The notes beneath the pieces are model-generated. The model was given only the letters and a program-made list of their open reading frames with translations. It had not been told where the DNA came from and searched no databases. Position numbers and translations under genes: made by a program. Below, in pieces: positions 1,735 to 64,000 of a stretch of 64,000 nt of DNA. The stretch is from Escherichia phage vB_EcoM_VR7, in the sequence record NC_014792.1; one strand, written 5' to 3'. Position 1 is the first letter of the stretch, and each line of letters begins with the position of its first letter.

Positions 1735-3309
1735 ATGGCAGGTTTTAATACAATACTAAATTTTCTTAAGCCTTGGGCTAAAGAAGATGAACAAGAATAT
1801 AAGCAACAAGAAAAAAATAATTTAGAGTCAATGACCGGGCCGAAGTTTGATGATGGGGCTCGCGAAATTGAGTCACAAGAACAAAACGTCCCGTATAATG
1901 CATTGATGCAACAGATGTTCGGGAGCAACGAACCTGAAGTAAAAAACACCAGGGAATTAATTGACACATACCGCAACCTACTAAATAATTATGAAGTTGA
2001 TAACGCGGTGCAAGAAATTGTGTCTGATGCTATCGTTTTTGAAGATGGTAAAGATGTCGTAGCTCTTAACCTTGATGCTACTGAATTTAGTCAGAAAATT
2101 AAAGACCGAATTCTCGAAGAATTCTCGGAAGTTAATAACCTCCTTAATTTCGAGCGTAAAGGTTCTGACCACTTTAAACGTTGGTATGTGGATTCTCGAA
2201 TTTTCTTCCACAAAATTATCAACCCTTCAAAACTTAAAGAAGGCGTTCAAGAACTTCGTCGCCTTGACCCAAGACAAATCCAGTTCATCCGTGAAATCGT
2301 TACACGCATGGAAAATGGTACGAAAATTGTTGACGGTTACAGAGAATATTTTGTATACGATACAGGTCATGAAAGTTATTGTGCCGATGGTCGTATATAT
2401 GAAGCGGGTACTAAAATAAAAATTCCTCGTGCGGCAATTGTATATGCACATTCCGGATTACTTGATTGTTGTGGTAAGAATATCATCGGATACCTGCAAC
2501 GAGCAATCAAACCTGCAAACCAATTAAAACTATTAGAAGATGCTTTAGTCATTTATCGTATAACTCGTGCGCCAGACCGCCGAGTCTTTTATATCGATAC
2601 TGGGAATATGCCGTCTCGCAAAGCAGCAGCACATATGCAACATATTATGAACACGATGAAAAACCGTGTCGTATATGATGCAACTACGGGTAAAATCAAA
2701 AACCAACAGCATAATATGTCAATGACAGAAGACTATTGGTTGCAACGTCGCGACGGTAAAGCAGTCACCGAAGTTGATACTCTCCCAGGTGCACAAGGCA
2801 TGTCGGATATGGATGATGTTCGCTGGTTTAAGAACAACCTATATCAGGCTCTCAGAATTCCATTATCTCGTATCCCTAATGACCAGAACAGTGGCGTTAT
2901 GTTTGATGCGGGGGCGACAATTACTCGCGATGAATTGAATTTCTCTAAATGGATTAGACAACTACAGAATAAATTTGAAGAAGTTTTCCTCGACCCGCTT
3001 AAAACCAACCTTATCCTGAAAAAAGTTATTTCAGAAGAGGAATGGGACAAGGAACTAAATAATATTAAAGTTACGTTCAACCGTGATAGCTATTTCACCG
3101 AAATGAAAGATGCAGAAATCATGGAACGCAGAATCAATATGCTAACGATGGCTGAACCGTTTATCGGTAAATATATTTCGCATCAAACTGCAATGAAGGA
3201 TTTCCTCCAGATGTCTGATGAAGAAATTAATCAAGAAGCTAAGCAAATTGAATTGGAGTCCAAAGAGGCTCGTTTCCAAAACCCTGAAGAAGAAGAAGAG
3301 GATTTCTAA
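1735..3309 (+). CDS. 20: Portal vertex protein gp20
   Basis: Full-length similarity to T4 gp20 ([56 protein letters not shown]); 524 aa. Confidence 0.97.
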
Positions 3310-3566
3310 TGGATGATTTATTTGAAGCCATTAAATCAAACGACCTCGTAGCCGTTCGCAAATATTTTGCTGAAAACATTGGCCCAGTATGCGGTAGTTT
3401 GATTCAAGAACGTAAGATTGAAATTGCACGTTCCATCATGATTGAAGGCGAAGAGCCTAAAGAAGATGATGAAGACAAGGACGACGACAAAGCAGAAAAG
3501 AAAGACAAAAAAGAATCTGACGACGCTGACGAAGGTGACGACGATGAAGATGAGGACGATGAATAA
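3309..3566 (+). CDS. 67: Prohead core protein gp67
   Basis: 85 aa, highly acidic C-terminal tail; position between 20 and 68; start overlaps gene 20 stop. Confidence 0.8.
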
Positions 3567-53708: not shown

Positions 53709-56700
53709 ATGGCCGATATTTTAAAACCAGCATTCAGAGCAACATCCGGTCTCGATGCTGCTGGTGAGAAAGTCATTAATGTCGCTAAAGCTGATTACTC
53801 AGTTTTGTCAGACGGCGTGAACGTAAACTTCTTTATAGAAGAAAACACAATTCAACAATATGATGCAACACGCGGATATAAGAAAGATTTTGCAGTTATT
53901 TATGATAACCGTATTTGGGTTTCCCAACGCGAAATCGCAGAACCAGCAGGCTCATTTGTTCAGCAATATTGGACTGCAACCCGTACTGACCCGAAATGGG
54001 AAACTGTTGCATCACCGACTCGTCAGCTTAATTCCGGGGAATTTATCGCGGTCGACTCAGCTGCAAGCTTTACCACATTTACATTGCCTCCGAACCCGAC
54101 TGATGGTGATACCATCGTTATTAAAGATATCGGCGGCAATACCGGTTATAATGAAATCAAAGTTCAATCTAGCAATGTGCCGGGGCAAGGTAACCAAAAA
54201 ATTGTTCGTTTTGGTAATCAGTATTCAGAAGTTTTAATTACCAAACCGTTCTCTTATAACATGCTTATTTTCTCCAACCGTTTATGGCAGTTCTGGGAAG
54301 CAGGGAACGAAGAACGTGGAATAAGAATTGAACCAAGCTCTGGTAAATATCGTGCTCAGGCTGCAGACTTTATTATGCGCCGCTACACGACTGCAGAGAA
54401 GATTACATTTGTTCTTCCTAAGTATGCTAACCAAGGTGATATTGTCAAATCGGTAGATATAGATGGATTAGGGCCATTATATCACCTGGATGTTGAAACG
54501 TTTGACGAGTCAAGCTCTCTGGGTAAACAGGGACAGCACAGTATGGAATTCCGTACAACTGGTGATGGCTTCTTCGTTTATAATGCCACTGAAAAACTGT
54601 GGGTGACTTGGGATGGTGATAACAAAACTCGCCTGCGTGTAATCCGTGACAGTGTGAAATTGCTGCCAAACGAAAGCATTATCGTATTTGGTAATGATAA
54701 CAGCACTCCACAGACAATTAACATCGACCTTCCAACGGGTGTTCGTCCTGGGGACGTAGTTAAGATTGCTCTGAACTATCTTCGCAAGGCACAGACTGTT
54801 AATATTAAGGCCACCGCGCTTGATAAAATCGCGTCTTCTGTTCAGCTGCTTCAGTTCCCGAAACGTTCGGAATATCCACCTGACACTGAATGGGTATTGG
54901 TTGACTCTTTGACTTTCAATGGCAACATAAGTTATACGCCGGTTATCGAATTAAGTTATCTTGAAGATACGGTTAAGAACATTAACTATTGGGTTGTTGC
55001 ACAAAACGTTCCGACTGTTGAGCGTGTTGACTCAAAAGATGATTTGACCCGAGCTCGTCTGGGTGTTATTGCACTGGCTAACCAGGCTCAGGTTAACGTT
55101 GACCATGAAAATAACCCTGAAAAAGAATTAGCAATTACCCCGCAAACTTTAGCTAACCGTGTGGCTACTGAATCACGCCGCGGTATTGCACGAATCGCTA
55201 ACACAGCACAGGTTAACCAGGATACGACTTTTGCTTTCCAGGATGATATTATCGTTTCTCCGAAAAAGTTAAACGAACGTACAGCTACAGAAACAAGACG
55301 TGGGCTCGCAGAAATCGCCACACAGCAAGAAACTGATGCAGGTATAGATGATACCACAATCATCACTCCACGCAAGCTACAAGCTCGCCAGGGCTCCGAA
55401 AGCTTATCGGGTATTGTCAAGTATGTTCCTACTACTGGGACTACTCCAGCTGCAAGTCGTATAACTGTTGGGACTAACGTTTATAATAAGAACACAACTA
55501 ATTTAGTTATTTCTCCTAAAGCTTTAGACCAATATAAAGCTGACCAGAATAACCAAGGTGCTGTATATCTAGCAACTCAGTCAGAAGTTAACGCAGGGGC
55601 AACAAATACAGGATTCAGTAACTCGGCAGTAACTCCTGAAACATTAGGTGCTCGCAGAGCAACAGATTCAAACCACGGTTTAATCGAGATTGCAACTCAG
55701 GTTGAAACTAATGCCGGTACTGATTATACCAGAGCTGTAACTCCTAAAACGTTGAATGACCGTAAAGCAACAGAATCATTATCCGGCATAGCCGAGATTG
55801 CTACGCAATCAGAATTTGATACTGGAACTGATGATACTCGTATTGCAACGCCATTAAAAATTAAAACTAGATTTAATAATACTGCTCGTACTTCTGTTAT
55901 TGCAGCAAGTGGTTTAGTAGAAACAGGGACGCTCTGGGACCATTATACGCTGAATATTCTTGAAGCAAATGAGACTCAACGTGGCACCGCAAGACTGGCT
56001 ACTCAGTTGGAAGTAAACACGGGTACTGACGATAAAACAATCGTTACTCCGCTTAAGTTGATGTCGAAAAAAGCTACAGAAGGCACCGAAGGTATTGTTC
56101 GCATCGCTACTCGCGCAGAAACCATCGCAGGAACAAGTTCAGTTCTGGCTGTTTCTCCGGTAAGTCTGAAATGGATTGTACAGTCCGAACCAACATGGGC
56201 AGCAACCACGACGACACGCGGCTTTGTTAAGATGTCTGAAGGCGCAATTACTTTTGTCGGTAATGCAACCGCAGGTTCCACTCAGGCTCTTGACCTGTAC
56301 GAGAAAAATAGCTATGCTATTTCGCCATACGAGTTAAACAAAACCCTTGGTAACTTCCTGCCGCGTTTGGCAAAAGCGGTAGACTCTGATAAATTGGACA
56401 ACCTGGACAGTACGCAGTTCGTTCGTCGTGATGTAGCCCAGGATATTAACGCTGCTATGACATTTAAACAGCCTGTAAGAATTGAAAGTACTTTAACCGT
56501 TACAGGTGTGGTTAATTTGAGTGGTTCTATTACTTCAAATAATACTACATTAACCGGTTCTACTACAATCAATAGCAATTCTACAGTAGGTGCTCTGAAT
56601 TACATTGAGTTTACTTCAGAATCTCAAGGCTCCGGTACTTGGAACTCCCAACATGATAGTAATGTTAAAGCTCCTGTATTTTTAAATATAACTACTCCGG

Positions 56701-57584
56701 TAGGCTCATCTAGATATGTTCCTTTAATTAAGCAACGTTATAAAGATGGGACATTTACCTTTGGTACATTGATAAATGAACCCACCTCAAATGATGAGGG
56801 TGCTTTTATTCTTCACTATATAGATGCGGTAAAACCCCAGCGCAAATGGACCTTTAGACGTAACGGCGATTTAGAAATAACTGCAGGTAATTTCGTTCTT
56901 GGTAATGGGTCTGCTATAATTAACGGGGGTCTTAGTGTTACTAAAGCTTCAGGTATCACAACCACCGGGCTAGTTGCTAATAGTGAATCTAGATTCGAAG
57001 GCGCTGTTACTATTAACAACTTCCTTACGGTAAGCAACAAAGCTACACTTAACAACGGCTTAGCTGTTCAGAAATATGCAAGGGTTGCAGGAGATAAGAC
57101 TTCTGATATCTATAGTAGAAAACCTACAATGGATACCGCAGGTTTTTGGTCTGTTGACATTAATGATTCAGCCACATATAATCAGTTCCCGGGTTATTTC
57201 AAAATGGTTGAAAAGACCAACGAAGTAACTGGTCTGCCTTATTTGGAGCGTGGTGAAGAAGTTAAATCACCGGGTACATTAACTCAGTTTGGTAACACAC
57301 TGAATTCACTCTATCAAGATTGGATTACTTATCCGAATACGACCACGGCAAGCACCACTCGCTGGACTCGTACATGGCAGCAGAACAAAAATGCATGGTC
57401 TGGTTTTGTTCAGGTCTTTGATGGTGGTAACCCACCGCAGCCTTCGGATATCGGTGCATTGCCTGCTGATAACGCTTCGATGAGCAACCTGACTATCAGA
57501 GATTGGTTAAGAATCGGTAACGTACGTATTGTTCCGGACCCAGTAACTAAATCCGTTAAATTCGAATGGATTGATACACCATAA
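53709..57584 (+). CDS. 34: Long tail fibre proximal subunit gp34
   Basis: 1291 aa; many near-identical blocks to T4 gp34 (LLQFPKRSEYPP, TAVTPKTLNDRKATESLSGIAEIATQ, WDHYTLNILEANETQRGT, FPGYFKMVEKTNEVTGLPYLERGEEVKSPGTLTQFGNTL, GNVRIVPDP). Confidence 0.97.
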   Translation: MADILKPAFRATSGLDAAGEKVINVAKADYSVLSDGVNVNFFIEENTIQQYDATRGYKKDFAVIYDNRIWVSQREIAEPAGSFVQQYWTATRTDPKWETVASPTRQLNSGEFIAVDSAASFTTFTLPPNPTDGDTIVIKDIGGNTGYNEIKVQSSNVPGQGNQKIVRFGNQYSEVLITKPFSYNMLIFSNRLWQFWEAGNEERGIRIEPSSGKYRAQAADFIMRRYTTAEKITFVLPKYANQGDIVKSVDIDGLGPLYHLDVETFDESSSLGKQGQHSMEFRTTGDGFFVYNATEKLWVTWDGDNKTRLRVIRDSVKLLPNESIIVFGNDNSTPQTINIDLPTGVRPGDVVKIALNYLRKAQTVNIKATALDKIASSVQLLQFPKRSEYPPDTEWVLVDSLTFNGNISYTPVIELSYLEDTVKNINYWVVAQNVPTVERVDSKDDLTRARLGVIALANQAQVNVDHENNPEKELAITPQTLANRVATESRRGIARIANTAQVNQDTTFAFQDDIIVSPKKLNERTATETRRGLAEIATQQETDAGIDDTTIITPRKLQARQGSESLSGIVKYVPTTGTTPAASRITVGTNVYNKNTTNLVISPKALDQYKADQNNQGAVYLATQSEVNAGATNTGFSNSAVTPETLGARRATDSNHGLIEIATQVETNAGTDYTRAVTPKTLNDRKATESLSGIAEIATQSEFDTGTDDTRIATPLKIKTRFNNTARTSVIAASGLVETGTLWDHYTLNILEANETQRGTARLATQLEVNTGTDDKTIVTPLKLMSKKATEGTEGIVRIATRAETIAGTSSVLAVSPVSLKWIVQSEPTWAATTTTRGFVKMSEGAITFVGNATAGSTQALDLYEKNSYAISPYELNKTLGNFLPRLAKAVDSDKLDNLDSTQFVRRDVAQDINAAMTFKQPVRIESTLTVTGVVNLSGSITSNNTTLTGSTTINSNSTVGALNYIEFTSESQGSGTWNSQHDSNVKAPVFLNITTPVGSSRYVPLIKQRYKDGTFTFGTLINEPTSNDEGAFILHYIDAVKPQRKWTFRRNGDLEITAGNFVLGNGSAIINGGLSVTKASGITTTGLVANSESRFEGAVTINNFLTVSNKATLNNGLAVQKYARVAGDKTSDIYSRKPTMDTAGFWSVDINDSATYNQFPGYFKMVEKTNEVTGLPYLERGEEVKSPGTLTQFGNTLNSLYQDWITYPNTTTASTTRWTRTWQQNKNAWSGFVQVFDGGNPPQPSDIGALPADNASMSNLTIRDWLRIGNVRIVPDPVTKSVKFEWIDTP

Positions 57585-57592
57585 GAGGTATT

Positions 57593-58729
57593 ATGGAAAA
57601 ATTTATGGCTGAATTTGGACAGGGATATGTCCAGGTTCCCGTGCTTTCTGAAAATAACGCAGTAAGATATAAATTGTCGATTGCAGGGACTTGTACTAAA
57701 TCGCCAAACTATCCCTACGTTAAGTTTCAAGATGAGGCCTTCGGGCCTCAGAACTTCCAGAATGGATTAAACCTTATTGAAATCGACCCGGTAACAAATA
57801 CAATTACAGCAACCAAAAACTATGGTTTCACAAAGGATTATGATGTAATTTCACAAGCTTTTGTGACTTACATTAATTCAATCCCGGCTGGTAGAATTGT
57901 TTGTTTGATATCACAGGGTAAATTAAATGCATCACAGACTTTAATAAATTGGTTTCGTACCCATGGTTCGACTGCATTCCCAGATAAGTGGTTAATCGAC
58001 CAGGTTGACACATCTTATGCAGCCTTTTATATCTCAGGTCGAAATGCAATCGTTAAAGAACATGTGCTGTATAATGATGGGGTAACTGTTGAGGATGTAT
58101 TGACTCCATTGGAAATGGTGTACGACGACTTTGCTGATGTGGGTGGCACAGGCTTCCCTGTACGAGTCGTGGAAGACGAAAATACATATTACAATAATGT
58201 TACACAAGAAATAAAACGCTTCCCCACAGACGACCCTATCACTCCTGTGGCCGCATATAATATGGCTCCTGGTGATACATTTTATCTGAAGTTTCAATTG
58301 ACATATGACCAGGCCCTTAAAGACCTTGGGACAACTCAAATGTCTGTACGATTCTTTACTGGTCAGACAATGATTCAGTCAAATGATTATGATATCCCGG
58401 CGACTGGTCAGGCAAGTCCGCCAGCTGGTGCATGGATGACGTTTGAACGTTATGTAGTTGTTCCACCGAATGCTGATGGATTTACATTATATGCAAGGAA
58501 GACTGTAACCGCAGGTCAGGGTGGAGTAAGGAATATTTTCTTCACAGAAATAGCGAGACAAGAAACTCAAGCCAAATCTGCTGAAATCGGTGTCAACGGT
58601 ATAAGAATGGTTGTTGCCGGAGAACCAGGTAATATGGGTAATGTCATTGCACAATTGAATGATAAAAATGCAACAAGGTCCAGTCAAGCTGGATTCGTAT
58701 TTGCGGCTGAATTCAGAGAAAAACAATAA
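57593..58729 (+). CDS. 35: Tail fibre hinge connector gp35
   Basis: 378 aa; position and size as T4 gp35; terminator follows. Confidence 0.8.
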   Translation: MEKFMAEFGQGYVQVPVLSENNAVRYKLSIAGTCTKSPNYPYVKFQDEAFGPQNFQNGLNLIEIDPVTNTITATKNYGFTKDYDVISQAFVTYINSIPAGRIVCLISQGKLNASQTLINWFRTHGSTAFPDKWLIDQVDTSYAAFYISGRNAIVKEHVLYNDGVTVEDVLTPLEMVYDDFADVGGTGFPVRVVEDENTYYNNVTQEIKRFPTDDPITPVAAYNMAPGDTFYLKFQLTYDQALKDLGTTQMSVRFFTGQTMIQSNDYDIPATGQASPPAGAWMTFERYVVVPPNADGFTLYARKTVTAGQGGVRNIFFTEIARQETQAKSAEIGVNGIRMVVAGEPGNMGNVIAQLNDKNATRSSQAGFVFAAEFREKQ

Positions 58730-58785: not shown

Positions 58786-59445
58786 ATGGCCGATTTAAGA
58801 GTAGGCTCAACGACTGGCGGGTCAGTAATATGGCACCAGGGTAATTTTCCGTTGACGCCGGTTAGCAACGATGTTTTTTACAAAACATACAAAGTATACA
58901 CAGAATTCAATAAACCACAAGCAGCAGATAACGACTTTGTTTCTAAAGCAGCAGGTGGGACATATCTGAACACTGTAGGGTTTGATAAAGATTTACAGTT
59001 TAAAGACACCGATGGGTATTGGGTTAAATTAGGACGTAAAGTAAACAACTCCCCAATGTCTGCTACATATTCTTTCTCTTTTAGAATGAGTAAAGGAATG
59101 GGCCTTGAGACATCTGATGGTACTCCGTTTGTAATTTTTGACCCGACTACTGTTGTAGGTGCAAACCGTCTTACTGTAATGGGCGATATCCTTGGTCGTC
59201 AAATTAAAGACGAATCAGGTCGAGTGTTTTCTCCAGGGAATACTCCGTCAAAAGCACAAGTTGGCTTGAGTGATGTGGATAACGCCAAACAGGTCCAAAT
59301 AAATAATAGTAACATACAATCAATGGCTGGTGTTCTTTCAGCCCCAAATTTTATATCTAGGAACCCAGGTACGTTGAACGAACACGTTCCTCGTATTGAC
59401 CAGGTTGTTCTTAGAGGTACATACGAAGATTTTGGATATTATTAA
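58786..59445 (+). CDS. 36: Long tail fibre distal connector gp36
   Basis: 219 aa; late promoter upstream; position as T4 gp36. Confidence 0.8.
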
Positions 59446-59453
59446 GAGGCAAT

Positions 59454-62400
59454 ATGGCTACTTTAAAAGCGATACAATTTAAAAGAAGTAAGACAGCTGG
59501 TGCCAAGCCTACTGTAGACCAGTTGGTTGAAGGTGAACTGGCTATTAACTTACGCGACCGTACTATTTTTACCAAGTCTGACCAGAACCAGATTATTGAC
59601 CTTGGTTTTGCTAAAGGTGGTCAGGTTGACGGCAACGTTACTATTAACGGACTTTTGACCCTTAATGGCGATTACACCCAAACTGGTGGGATGCAAGTAA
59701 CTGGTGATATTTACTCTGGTGCAGGCGTTAGCGCCTTAGTTTATCGAGCAAGAAATGGCTCTTTTTATTCAAGAGCATCAAATGAGACGTCTAACGCCCA
59801 CATGTGGTTTGAAAATGCAAATGGTTCTGAACGTGGTGTTTTATATGCCAAACCACAGCTTGAAAATGAAGGTACTATTACCATGCGAGTTAAGCAGGGT
59901 ACAGCAGCAGGTGCCGGCAATATAGAATTCCATTTTATTTCTTCAGGTGGTGGTATTTTTCAGGCCCCTATTTTAAAGGCTACGACATCTATCACCACTC
60001 CTACTATTACGGTTAACCTGGTCAATCATGATTTCAAAGCGTTTGGTCAATACGACAGTCAGTCTTTAGTTAACTATGTTTATCCTGGAACCGGCGAAAC
60101 GAATGGTGTAAACTATCTTCGTAAAGTTCGCGCTAAGTCCGGTGGCACTATGTGGCATGAGCTTTGTACTGCTCAATTAGGCCAAGCTGATGAAATTTCT
60201 TGGTGGACAGGTAATACTCCACAGTCAAAACAGTATGGTATTCGTAACGACGGACGAATGGCCGGCCGTAATAGCCTTGCATTAGGTACATTCACTGAAG
60301 GTTTCCCATCTAGTGATTATGGTAGCTTCGGTGCAATGGGCGATAAGTATCTTGTTCTCGGTGACATTGCAACTGGTCTGAAATATATCAAACAAGGTAA
60401 TTTTGATTTAGTTGGCGGCGGATATTCTGTTGCGTCAATTACCACAGACGGGTTCCGTGGCACAAGTAAAACCTTATTTGGCCGTAGTAATGACCAAGGT
60501 TTAACATGGCTTCTTCCCGGCCAAAACTCCTCAATGGTTTCAATTCGTACAGAAATTGATGGTAATAACTCCGGTGACGGACAAACCCACCTTGGTTATA
60601 ACAGTAATGGTAAACTTTATCACTATTTTCGTGGTACAGGTCGTGTAGCTATTTCAATGGCTGAGGGGCTTATTGTTGAGCCAGGAATTTTAGATATTAA
60701 AACCGGTTCCAATGGCGTTGCTATTAGAGCGGACGGAACAGTATCTTCAATACAAAGAATTAAATTTGATAACGGATTAGTTCTTACTGGTGCTAGACCC
60801 GACGGTATTCAACTTGACGCTCCTACAGCAGCAGATGGCACTAAAACTATACTGTGGGCTGGTGGTACTCGCACAGGTCAGAATAAAAGTTATGTATCTA
60901 TTAAAGCGTGGGGTAATTCATTTAATGCCACTGGTGATAAATCTCGTGAATCTGTTTTCGAGGTTGCTGATGGTAACGGTTATTATTTTTATGCTCAACG
61001 CGTAGCTCCTACTGGTGTTGAAACGGTTGGTCCTGTGGTTATGCAATTAGCGGGTAGTTTATTGGCCCGTGGTACATTAAACACTGATAGCAATCTTTAT
61101 GTGAAAGGATTGAGTACACATGAAGGTGCTGTGACCATGAATAATGGTCTTCGCTTAGTCGGTGGTTCTTCTATTACCGGCCAAGTTAAAATCGGCGGAA
61201 CTGCTAATGCATTAAGAATTTGGAATGCCGAATACGGTGCTATTTTCCGTCGTTCTGAAAGTAACTTTTATATTGTTCCAACCAATCAAAATGAAGGCGA
61301 AAGTGGAGACATTCACAGCTCTTTAAGACCAGTGAGAATAGGATTAAGCGATGGTGCAGTTGGGTTAGGAAGAGATTCTTTTATAGTAGATCAAAATAAT
61401 GCTTTAACTACGATAAACAGTAACTCTCGCATTAATGCTAACTTTAGAATGCAATTAGGACAATCCGCTTATATTGATGCTGAATGTACTAACACAGTTA
61501 GCCCGGCTGGTGCAGGGACTTTTGCTTCACAAAATAATGAAAACGTTCGTGCTCCATTCTATATGAATATTAATCGTACAGATACAAGTACTTACGTTCC
61601 TATTTTGAAACAACGATATGTCCAAGGAAACAGTTGTTATTCTCTGGGAACTCTACTTAACGGCGGTAACTTCAGAGTTCATTATCATGAAGGCGGCGAC
61701 AATGATTCAACAGGCCCTTTAGTTAAATACTATGGGTGGGAATTCAATAGAACAGGCGATTTTATTTCCCCTGGTAAATTAGGTGCTGGTGCGGTTCGTA
61801 TTGGTACTGACGGTAATATTACAGGTGGTTCTGGCAACTTTGCTAACTTGAACAGTACAATCGAATCGCTTAAAATCGATATTGTATCAAGCTATCCAAT
61901 TGGTGCCCCTATTCCATGGCCAACAGATACTCCTCCTGCTGGTTATGCTTTAATGACGGGTCAAACCTTTGATACCGGAGCTTATCCTAAACTGGCTGTT
62001 GCGTATCCTAGTGGGGTTATTCCGGATATGCGTGGACAAACTATCAAAGGTAAACCAAGTGGTCGAGCTGTGTTGAGTGCGGAAGCTGATGGTATTAAGT
62101 CTCACAACCATGGCGGCTCTGTTGCGAGTACTGATTTAGGTACTAAGACCACCTCATCATTTGATTATGGTACTAAGACCACCTCATCATTTGATTATGG
62201 TACTAAAACCAGTAACACAACAGGTAACCATAACCATAGCGTTAGTGGTACTACTAGCTCGGCTGGTGCTCATACCCATACACTTACATTTCATAATGGC
62301 GCTTCCAGCGGTGGTTCTGTGGTCGGTGCAAGTCCTTCCGATTATACGGCAAAAACTACAACTACTAGTTCAGCCGGTGCTCATACTCATACTTGGTCAG

Positions 62401-62594
62401 GTACTACCAACACTACCGGTAACCATGCCCACACCGTTGGTATTGGTGCTCATAGCCATTCGGTCGGCATTGGTGCTCATACGCACACAGTAGCAATCGG
62501 GTCCCACGGTCATGGTCTTACCATAAATAGTACAGGTAATACAGAAAACACGGTTAAAAACATTGCTTTTAACTATATCGTTCGTTTAGCATAA
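59454..62594 (+). CDS. 37: Long tail fibre distal subunit gp37 (receptor-binding fibre) with His-rich C-terminal repeats
   Basis: 1046 aa; position and size as T4 gp37; C-terminal HxH-type repeats (GAHTHT, GNHAHT, GAHSHS, GSHGHG). Confidence 0.9.
62139..62216 (+). repeat. 30-bp in-frame tandem repeat in the gp37 C-terminal tip region
   Basis: ggtactaagaccacctcatcatttgattat x2 plus a partial third copy; encodes [10 protein letters not shown] repeats next to the His-rich motifs. Confidence 0.85.
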
Positions 62595-62597
62595 GGA

Positions 62598-62616
62598 GAG
62601 GGGCTTCGGCCCCTTC
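62598..62616 (+). promoter_or_regulatory. UUCG-loop hairpin immediately upstream of the gene 38 start
   Basis: ggggc-ttcg-gcccc between the gene 37 stop and the gene 38 ATG. Confidence 0.45.
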
Positions 62617-62621
62617 TGAAT

Positions 62622-63167
62622 ATGAAAATTTATCACTTTTATTTTGACACAAAAGAATTTTACAAAGAAGAAAATTATAAACCCATTAAAGGTCTTGGTC
62701 TTCCTGCTCATTCAACAATTAAAAAACCTTTAGAACCTAAAGAAGGTTTCGCTGTTATATTTGATGAACGCACTCAAGACTGGATTTATGAAGAAGACCA
62801 TCGAGGCAAACGTGCATGGACTTTTAATAAAGAAGAAATCTTAATAAATGACATAGGAAGTCCGATTGGTATAACTTTCGATAAACCTGGTGAGTTTGAT
62901 ATATGGACAGATGATGGCTGGAAAGAAGACGAAACATATAAACGAGTAATGATTCGTAATCGGAAAATCGAGGGGTTTTATAAAGAATTCCAGGTATTAA
63001 GTAATATGGTTGAAGCCTCTGTTGCTGATAAGAAAGAAAAATTCTATCACCAGAATCTTAAACGTTTCTTTGCTCTTTTAGAAAAACACGAACACTTAGG
63101 TGGTGAATTTCCGGCTTGGCCAGAGAAAGAGAAAAAATCCTTTTTCAAAAGATTGTTTAAAAAATAA
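62622..63167 (+). CDS. 38: Tail fibre assembly chaperone gp38 (T4 type)
   Basis: Near-identical to T4 gp38 from the N-terminus (MKIYH.YFDTKEFYKEENYKP.KGLGLPAHSTIKKPLEPKEG.AV.FDERTQDWIYEEDHRGKRAWTFNKEEI). Confidence 0.95.
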   Translation: MKIYHFYFDTKEFYKEENYKPIKGLGLPAHSTIKKPLEPKEGFAVIFDERTQDWIYEEDHRGKRAWTFNKEEILINDIGSPIGITFDKPGEFDIWTDDGWKEDETYKRVMIRNRKIEGFYKEFQVLSNMVEASVADKKEKFYHQNLKRFFALLEKHEHLGGEFPAWPEKEKKSFFKRLFKK

Positions 63168-63207: not shown

Positions 63208-63861
63208 ATGGAACCAAAAGTAGGAATCTCAATTCCCGACCTACTTTTTGGACTTCTTGATAGAATTTTTAAAGATAATGCAACCGGGAAAGTTGTTTTT
63301 TCCCGGGTACTAGTTATTGTTCTATTATTTTTAATGGCGGTAATCTGGTATAAAGGTGATGCAATTTTAGATGCGTATAGGGATGCTTCATATGCCTCGT
63401 ACACAGAAATGATAAGGCAAGACCAGGATAACAGATTTAAAATTGCAGCTATCGAGCAAATCCAGATAGTTCACTCATCAAGCGGAGCAGACTTTACAGC
63501 GATATATTCCTTTAGACCCACTAACCTTAACTACTTCGTGGATATGGTGGGGTATGAGGGGATATTACCTGAATCAGTTGACGAAAAAAATTTGGGTGGG
63601 TTTCCAATAGATAAGACTTCAGCGGAATATTTGGCGGGGGTTAATGGTAATTATTTTGAATCTGGTACGGAATCTGTATTCTTACCAACAAAGAAAAAAA
63701 GCAGCTTCGCATATATGTTCAGCTGCCCATTCTTTAATTTGGAAAACGTTTATGCTGGCACGGTTTCGCTGTACTGGTATAAGCAAAAACCCGACCTTGG
63801 TTTTGATAGACTTTCTGCTATGTGTGGACAAGCAGGTCGTACGCTCGGGCGTACACGTTAG
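63208..63861 (+). CDS. t: Holin T
   Basis: Strong similarity to T4 T (D.LFG.LDR.FKDNATGKV, one N-terminal TM helix, VYSFRP.NLNYFVD, CPFFNL.N.YAGT...YWY); 217 aa; late promoter upstream. Confidence 0.95.
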   Translation: MEPKVGISIPDLLFGLLDRIFKDNATGKVVFSRVLVIVLLFLMAVIWYKGDAILDAYRDASYASYTEMIRQDQDNRFKIAAIEQIQIVHSSSGADFTAIYSFRPTNLNYFVDMVGYEGILPESVDEKNLGGFPIDKTSAEYLAGVNGNYFESGTESVFLPTKKKSSFAYMFSCPFFNLENVYAGTVSLYWYKQKPDLGFDRLSAMCGQAGRTLGRTR

Positions 63862-63862
63862 A

Positions 63863-64000
63863 ATCCGGAGGTATACATCATCAGATATCGGTGTATATCT
63901 TCGAATCCTTCGTTAAATTGTTCAATGATTTGTTCAATTTCATCTTCAGATAAACTTTTAAACAACTTGTTAAACGATACATTGTTTAACTCATTCCCAT
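63863..64000 (-). CDS. asiA: Anti-sigma factor AsiA, C-terminal portion (5' end outside window)
   Basis: Minus-strand frame ends ...EQFNEGFEDIHRYLMMYTSGF*, matching the T4 AsiA C-terminus (...DEFNEGFEGVYRYLEMYT..). Confidence 0.7.

Follow-up and report, generated by a model that had tools for sequence, protein, structure and literature searches.

The locus and the receptor-binding end of gp37

The window analysed here, a stretch of 64,000 nucleotides (nt) from Escherichia phage vB_EcoM_VR7 (NC_014792.1), is T4-like myovirus DNA with the classical block of long-tail-fibre genes at its 3' end, in the order 34-35-36-37-38-t. Gene 37 (59454-62594 in the list of open reading frames; + strand, as are all the features within it) codes for the distal subunit of the long tail fibre, a protein of 1046 residues, and gene 38 (62622-63167, + strand) codes for a protein of 181 residues. 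Gp37 is 70% identical to T4 gp37 from end to end and matches PHROG 1699 (E=1.7e-271), while gp38 is 88% identical to the chaperone-type gp38 of T4 and matches PHROG 105, 'tail fiber assembly' (E=1e-42). Neither Pfam nor NCBIfam gave a match for gp38, and NCBIfam gave none for gp37; the identity of both proteins is settled by the PHROGs and by the direct comparison with T4. The part of gp37 under study is encoded by 62100-62594 and comprises domain D11 (stem and tip) and, up to the stop codon, the final strand of the collar domain. It is very probably the needle-shaped receptor-binding end of a T4-type gp37 trimer, in which a stem of paired rungs carries a tip insert that determines the choice of receptor.

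The last 260 residues of gp37 match the receptor-binding tip of the T4 fibre (PDB 2XGF; phmmer E=1e-100, query residues 8-267 against residues 2-242 of the chain), and 2xgf_A was the sole significant match when the predicted model was compared with the PDB by Foldseek (E=3.8e-13). In T4 the collar domain D10 is formed by residues 811-881 and 1010-1026, and the needle D11 is inserted into it; the needle stem runs outward along residues 882-931 and returns along 960-1009, the tip subdomain 932-959 makes up the distal pole, and seven iron ions are held by boxes of the form HxH (PMC6957217). These structural limits, as well as the T4 contacts used below, are second-hand from that paper. The same arrangement is found in the window. 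The collar brackets the needle, with its core at residues 817-864 (61902-62045; Pfam PF07484 Collar, E=2.7e-10, aligned to 2XGF) and a conserved strand of 15 residues at the C-terminus. The needle itself, residues 883-1029 (62100-62540, as delimited by phmmer against 2XGF and the T4 limits), is equivalent to T4 residues 882-1009 lengthened by two insertions only: 10 residues in the outgoing strand, which amount to a second 10-residue unit, and 9 residues in the returning strand, which amount to an extra HxHxVGIGA box. Besides the layout of collar, stem and tip, the HxH boxes and the order of the genes, the two phages share a nearly identical stretch over the last 45 residues, an adjacent gp38 and a tip insert of the same length, 34 residues. 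They differ in that the window gp37 has one rung more, with eight HxH boxes as against seven, and in the tip insert, where only about 9 of the 34 residues are shared.

The eight HxH motifs are located at residues 884, 926, 940, 977, 991, 1000, 1009 and 1018, three in the outgoing and five in the returning strand, and their His columns are invariant in the alignment of homologues. From the His frequency of the whole protein about 0.09 boxes would be expected in the same stretch; 17 of the 27 histidines of gp37 are crowded into 142 residues. Boxes 1 (H884-N-H886, 62103-62111) and 2 (H926-N-H928, 62229-62237) are followed by box 3 (H940-T-H942, 62271-62279), which is the counterpart of the T4 iron ligands H929 and H931, both of them essential in T4 gp37 (PMC6957217). 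Boxes 5 to 8 (H991, H1000, H1009 and H1018), spaced by 9, 9 and 9 residues, belong to four descending modules of 27 bp, or 9 residues (62424-62531, repeat family D1), of which T4 has three. The gp37 chain would thus leave the collar, run outward along the stem, make the tip and run back, and the HxH boxes of three chains are predicted to coordinate iron ions on the axis of the fibre. Judging from the number of boxes, eight iron sites per trimer would be implied, as opposed to the seven of T4.

An earlier note, made from the letters of the stretch, had taken gp38 for a chaperone of the T4 type rather than an adhesin, and the comparison bears this out. In phages of the T2/T6 type, an adhesin of about 260 residues, also named gp38, caps a cleaved gp37 (PMC3157838). 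Likeness to that system is confined to the position of the gene downstream of gene 37 and to host recognition at the end of the fibre; the protein and the mechanism are unrelated, and the 181-residue gp38 of the window, with its T4 identity and its PHROG assignment, is not such a cap. Its gene starts 27 nt downstream of gene 37, where the chaperone of a T4-type needle is expected to be encoded. Since gp38 is a chaperone of this type, specificity is expected to lie in gp37, as in T4 (PMC6957217). Folding of the tip insert would be assisted by gp38 and by gp57A, the latter encoded elsewhere in the genome.

Probable paired rungs in the stem

The architecture of the stem was compared in 202 sequences (133 unique), namely the window protein and 201 homologues drawn from 120 proteins of a large database, from relatives encoded in IMG/VR loci, and from TuIb, T4 and P896. 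The two strands vary in concert. The distance between boxes 1 and 2 is 32, 42 or 52 residues and pairs, respectively, with two, three or four C-terminal intervals of 9 residues, and the 14-residue interval adjacent to the tip occurs once in each strand, in neither, or twice in each. The lengths of the stem strands fit the expressions asc = 22+10a+14b and desc = 9(a+1)+14b, and fall into the six (asc, desc) classes (42,27), (46,32), (52,36), (56,41), (66,50) and (70,55). T4 has a=1 and b=1, with seven boxes, and the window a=2 and b=1, with eight. The rule holds for 201 of the 202 sequences (132 of the 133 unique ones), counting one that is a single residue short.

A register for the two strands can be derived from the contacts in the T4 crystal, where G921 faces F970 and H929 faces G964, so that the residue numbers of a pair sum to about 1892 (PMC6957217). 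Mapped on the window gp37, this register gives i+j = 1913. The earlier note had also called for a structure prediction of the tip; the AlphaFold2 monomer of the 267-residue tip, built on an alignment of 52 sequences, was of low confidence (predicted local distance difference test score, pLDDT, 58; predicted template modelling score, pTM, 0.23), and only its strand register, not its coordinates, was used. The hairpin of this low-confidence model (strands 147-166/189-208 and 132-141/214-223) has the register 1913, and therefore each outgoing decamer lies opposite one His box. Hence, each outgoing module of 10 residues would stand level with one returning module of 9 residues of the type HxHxVGIGA, and we infer that the second 10-residue unit and the extra box (H1000/H1002) together make one additional rung with respect to T4. 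From a rise of about 3.3 Å per β-strand residue, the needle would be some 3 nm longer than that of T4.

The 30-bp tandem repeat

As the earlier note had described, a 30-bp tandem repeat lies beside the multiple HxH boxes. Tandem Repeats Finder placed it at 62132-62211, with 2.7 copies and 94% matches. In frame, units 1 (62139-62168) and 2 (62169-62198) are identical in 30 of 30 nt and encode the same 10-residue peptide twice (residues 896-915, 62139-62198), the 'A' rungs of the ascending strand; a degenerate third unit (62199-62228, repeat family D4, 63%) runs into His box 2. A perfect adjacent 30-mer cannot have arisen by chance.

That the two units were produced by the assembly or the sequencing is very nearly excluded in our judgement. 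Assemblers can miscount short perfect tandem repeats, and one metagenomic relative considered below (L003) is possibly such a case. In the window, the reading frame is intact and the two units match exactly the four 9-residue boxes of the opposite strand, as they do in more than 45 other sequences; moreover, three independently sequenced phages have an equal perfect-repeat structure.

The two-unit repeat is the common state in the T-even relatives (TuIb, VR25, P896, AV116-118 and GiZh) and in many prophage fibres. The gp37 proteins of these T-even phages and of ESCO10 share with the window the 8-box form, with spacings (42,14,x,14,9,9,9) and two GTKxxSSFDY units; in nucleotides, ESCO10 is 93-100% identical to the window over the stem and the 5' portion of gene 38. 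About 55 two-unit relatives have units that match in only 18-28 of 30 nt, even when the peptides are identical (22 of 30 in TuIb), and in twelve other T-even phages the pairs share 22-28 of 30. The perfect identity found in the window might then denote a recent duplication in situ, from a T4-like ancestor with one unit. We consider this improbable: the matching extra His box in the returning strand now shares only 20 of 27 and 15 of 27 nt with its neighbours, so the two-rung state must be old, and all close relatives are in the two-unit state. Furthermore, four T-even phages carry units that are identical in 30 of 30 nt, with a unit sequence that differs from phage to phage, which points to repeated homogenisation. 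The two identical units read GGTACTAAGACCACCTCATCATTTGATTAT in the window, GGTACTAAAACCACATCAAGCTTTGATTAT in VR25, GGTACTAAAAACACCTCATCATTTGATTAT in ESCO10 and GGTACTAAAACCACCTCATCATTCGATTAT in 348Ecol098PP, and in ESCO10 even a nonsynonymous change, Thr to Asn, is present in both copies. Because whatever sets one genome apart from another is found in both of its units, the comparison of the sequences indicates concerted evolution of the two 30-bp units, which would come about by gene conversion or by cycles of unequal exchange rather than by one fresh duplication. The homogenised units therefore argue that the repeat is recombinationally active, while the peptide and the copy number stay constant; this constancy is consistent with a need to match the opposite strand.

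The earlier note had tied the repeat to the host-range variable region, and this connection was not upheld. The repeat is in the ascending stem, where the mean column entropy is about 0.5 bit, among the most conserved parts of the domain. An alternative along the same line, that the repeat is itself the host-range determinant, lying close to the receptor and tuning specificity by its copy number or its sequence, has in its favour that the repeat is located within the receptor-binding domain and that one, two or three units are found across the family. Nevertheless, it is quite unlikely, if slightly less so than a recent duplication. The repeat peptide is near-invariant among relatives with very different tips and hosts; homology with 2XGF puts the repeat close to the collar, in the part of the outgoing stem bounded by His boxes 1 and 2, and far from the distal pole at the receptor end; and whenever the number of units changes, a His box in the opposite strand makes up for it, as expected from a structural and not a binding element. 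In favour of this alternative, too, duplications in the C-terminal part of T4 gp37 have reportedly been found to widen the host range (Tetart and colleagues, 1996, going by the title of their report). Compared with such duplications, the window does have a perfect tandem repeat, but its two units date from an ancestor and are compensated for in the opposite strand. Duplications of the host-range type could be supported by the direct repeats that flank the tip, and none is present in the window gp37.

The tip insert and its exchange cassette

Between boxes 3 and 4 lies the tip insert (residues 943-976, 62280-62381), a hypervariable stretch of 34 residues predicted to be the receptor-contact subdomain. 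It aligns to T4 residues 932-965 and so covers the tip subdomain 932-959. Among 36 unique 8-box relatives, the insert has 30-52 residues and occurs in 22 distinct, mutually unalignable versions, whereas the outgoing stem, repeat included, and the returning stem each have a mean column entropy of about 0.5 bit. At the nucleotide level, 62261-62380 is the stretch least identical to VR25, P896 and T4. Thus, rather than being invariant among phages, the region singled out by the earlier note holds the most variable stretch of the locus. Its suggestion that the gp37 tip probably sets specificity and is a likely host-range variable region stands insofar as gp37 and not gp38 is concerned and as the variable element lies inside 62100-62594; only the link between the repeat and the variability has to be dropped.

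In comparison with ESCO10, a Dhakavirus phage, identity is 93-100% over 61941-62248 and over 62396-62870, and the segment 62249-62395 between these conserved flanks is unalignable. This segment, the exchange cassette, consists of the tip insert and both His boxes that flank it. It is bounded by a direct repeat of 11 residues (repeat family D2), whose left copy comprises residues 933-943 (62250-62282) and whose right copy comprises residues 970-980 (62361-62393) and includes His box 4; the copies are identical in all 11 residues and in 28 of 32 nt (88%). The insert with its two flanking 11-residue boxes would act as a recombination cassette.

In T4, alanine scanning and binding assays place the recognition of lipopolysaccharide (LPS) and of OmpC in the tip subdomain 932-959 (PMC6957217). 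Among the residues essential in T4, H929, H931, N937, G938, G942 and G943 are kept in the window gp37, and G940, S947 and Y949 are changed to S, G and S, respectively. In phages with T4-type gp37, it is mainly in the head domain that the proteins differ, and host range and receptor change together with it (PMC10844046). Because of the T4 mutagenesis and of the location of the variability, the 34-residue insert at 62280-62381 is, by analogy, most likely the part that sets the choice of receptor.

The sequence of the insert itself has few neighbours. A tip-only query of 5.8 billion proteins gave nothing above 51% identity, so that the receptor is not assignable by homology from that search, and a query with the whole of D11 gave a best match of 69% among 50,697 phage records. 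The nearest tip class is that of AV116/AV118 and of E. coli prophages, with the pattern SM(Q/T)FVSGG...S(P)DY...TSSAGA. The inserts of AV116 and AV118 belong to a class of 32 residues and are only about 50% similar to that of the window, and in VR25, ESCO10, P896 and TuIb the insert is longer, 48-53 residues against 34. The closest database relatives of the module of collar plus needle are not other T-even phages but Shigella and E. coli prophage fibres, which are up to 73% identical and of the 8-box form. They belong with the side tail fibres of lambdoid and other enterobacterial prophages (Stf-like, with a collar and PF03335 repeats). Prophage fibres also provide the closest tip-insert class (HTHSMTFVSGGSSGAPGSGASDYSKY..., 22 of 38 residues identical). 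They differ in having 220-460 residues, unrelated N-terminal shafts and a temperate context, whereas the module of the window ends a T-even gp37 of 1046 residues. Several of the prophage relatives among the 120 database proteins are fused to, or mis-annotated as, a portal, a terminase or an S49 peptidase.

The receptor of AV118 is confirmed to be OmpC, and LPS dependence was suggested for AV116 (PMC10844046). OmpC was considered as the receptor of the window gp37 on account of the resemblance to AV118, and was rejected; the D11 domains of AV116 and AV118 are identical and yet their dependencies differ.

Stem length, tip choice and their bearing on host range

Several observations weigh against a stem of paired rungs with receptor choice in the tip. 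First, the metagenomic sequence L003 (IMGVR_UViG_3300030021_000020, match 2501-3328), the sole exception to the length rule, has two outgoing GTK units and three returning boxes; the coupling may not be absolute, L003 being a naturally mismatched needle, or a 27-bp repeat may have collapsed in its assembly. Second, only a few independent evolutionary events underlie the covariation. Third, the periods of 10 and 9 residues preclude a constant register, which leaves the exact geometry of the rungs loose. Fourth, the sole structure prediction is the low-confidence monomer described above and not a trimer. Finally, AV116 and AV118 have the same D11 despite the differing dependencies described for them (PMC10844046), and the sequence of the needle tip alone may be insufficient to predict receptor dependence.

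The feature belongs to a well-known family, one with a solved structure, a mapped function and a known chaperone, and represents a new allele of the tip within the common 8-box form. To this family, the rule of paired rungs and the concerted evolution of the units are modest additions. They bear on how a fibrous fold can alter its length without misfolding, and refine the established picture of the domain without changing it. The tip allele, having no match closer than about 50% in very large databases, may recognise a receptor variant outside those of the characterised phages. For engineering or for the prediction of host range, what should be swapped or mutated is the cassette of about 150 bp from His box 3 to His box 4 and not the conspicuous repeat, and any change in the number of repeat units must be matched on the opposite strand.

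A further-reaching proposal is possible, although we hold it to be rather doubtful. The stem would be a quantised ladder of paired modules, in which each outgoing unit of 10 residues pairs with a His box of 9 residues and each unit of 14 residues with another of 14, selection holding the two strands in step. The perfect repeat would be the trace of a continuing unequal exchange or gene conversion, through which the two units of any one genome stay identical although they drift apart from those of other genomes. Stem length would then constitute a second heritable axis of host adaptation, next to a cassette that encodes an unsampled specificity. If this were so, the length of the needle, with 7, 8, or 9 and more iron sites, could set its reach through O-antigen or capsule layers.

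Mosaicism and neighbouring features of the fibre locus

The nearest relatives of the window genome are Dhakavirus and Gaprivervirus phages, and over its backbone it shares 97.6% identity with Escherichia phage VR25. Against VR25, a divergent patch begins at about 59630, after some 180 bp of gene 37, and ends at 62978 within gene 38; identity resumes abruptly at 62979 with 429 perfect bp. The patch is itself mixed: P896 and T4 are the nearest relatives of its shaft, ESCO10 is the nearest over the collar, the stem and the 5' portion of gene 38, and the tip cassette has no close relative among those sampled. Such mosaicism is in keeping with the plasticity known for this locus in T-even phages (PMC3157838). 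An island identical to VR25 lies at 62524-62650 and comprises the end of gene 37, the intergenic hairpin and the start of gene 38.

At the junction of genes 37 and 38 (62593-62624, + strand), a Shine-Dalgarno-like AAGGAG overlaps the stop codon of gene 37, and a hairpin with a UUCG tetraloop, GGGGCTTCGGCCCC (62600-62613), parts it from the ATG of gene 38. Conservation of the junction amounts to 96-100% with VR25, P896 and T4. The gene 38 of T4 is a described case of a hairpin that draws a distant Shine-Dalgarno sequence near the start codon. A function of the hairpin as a terminator was considered and rejected, as it is not followed by a run of T and the folding energy of the junction RNA (-15.8 kcal/mol) is not significant with respect to shuffled sequences (z -1.4).

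The other genes of the block are gene 34 (53709-57584), gene 35 (57593-58729) and gene 36 (58786-59445), upstream of gene 37, and gene t, the holin gene (63208-63861), downstream of gene 38. Beyond the holin gene, a gene on the minus strand (63862-64000) runs off the end of the window; at the matching position, P896 and T4 carry asiA, the gene of the anti-sigma-70 factor.

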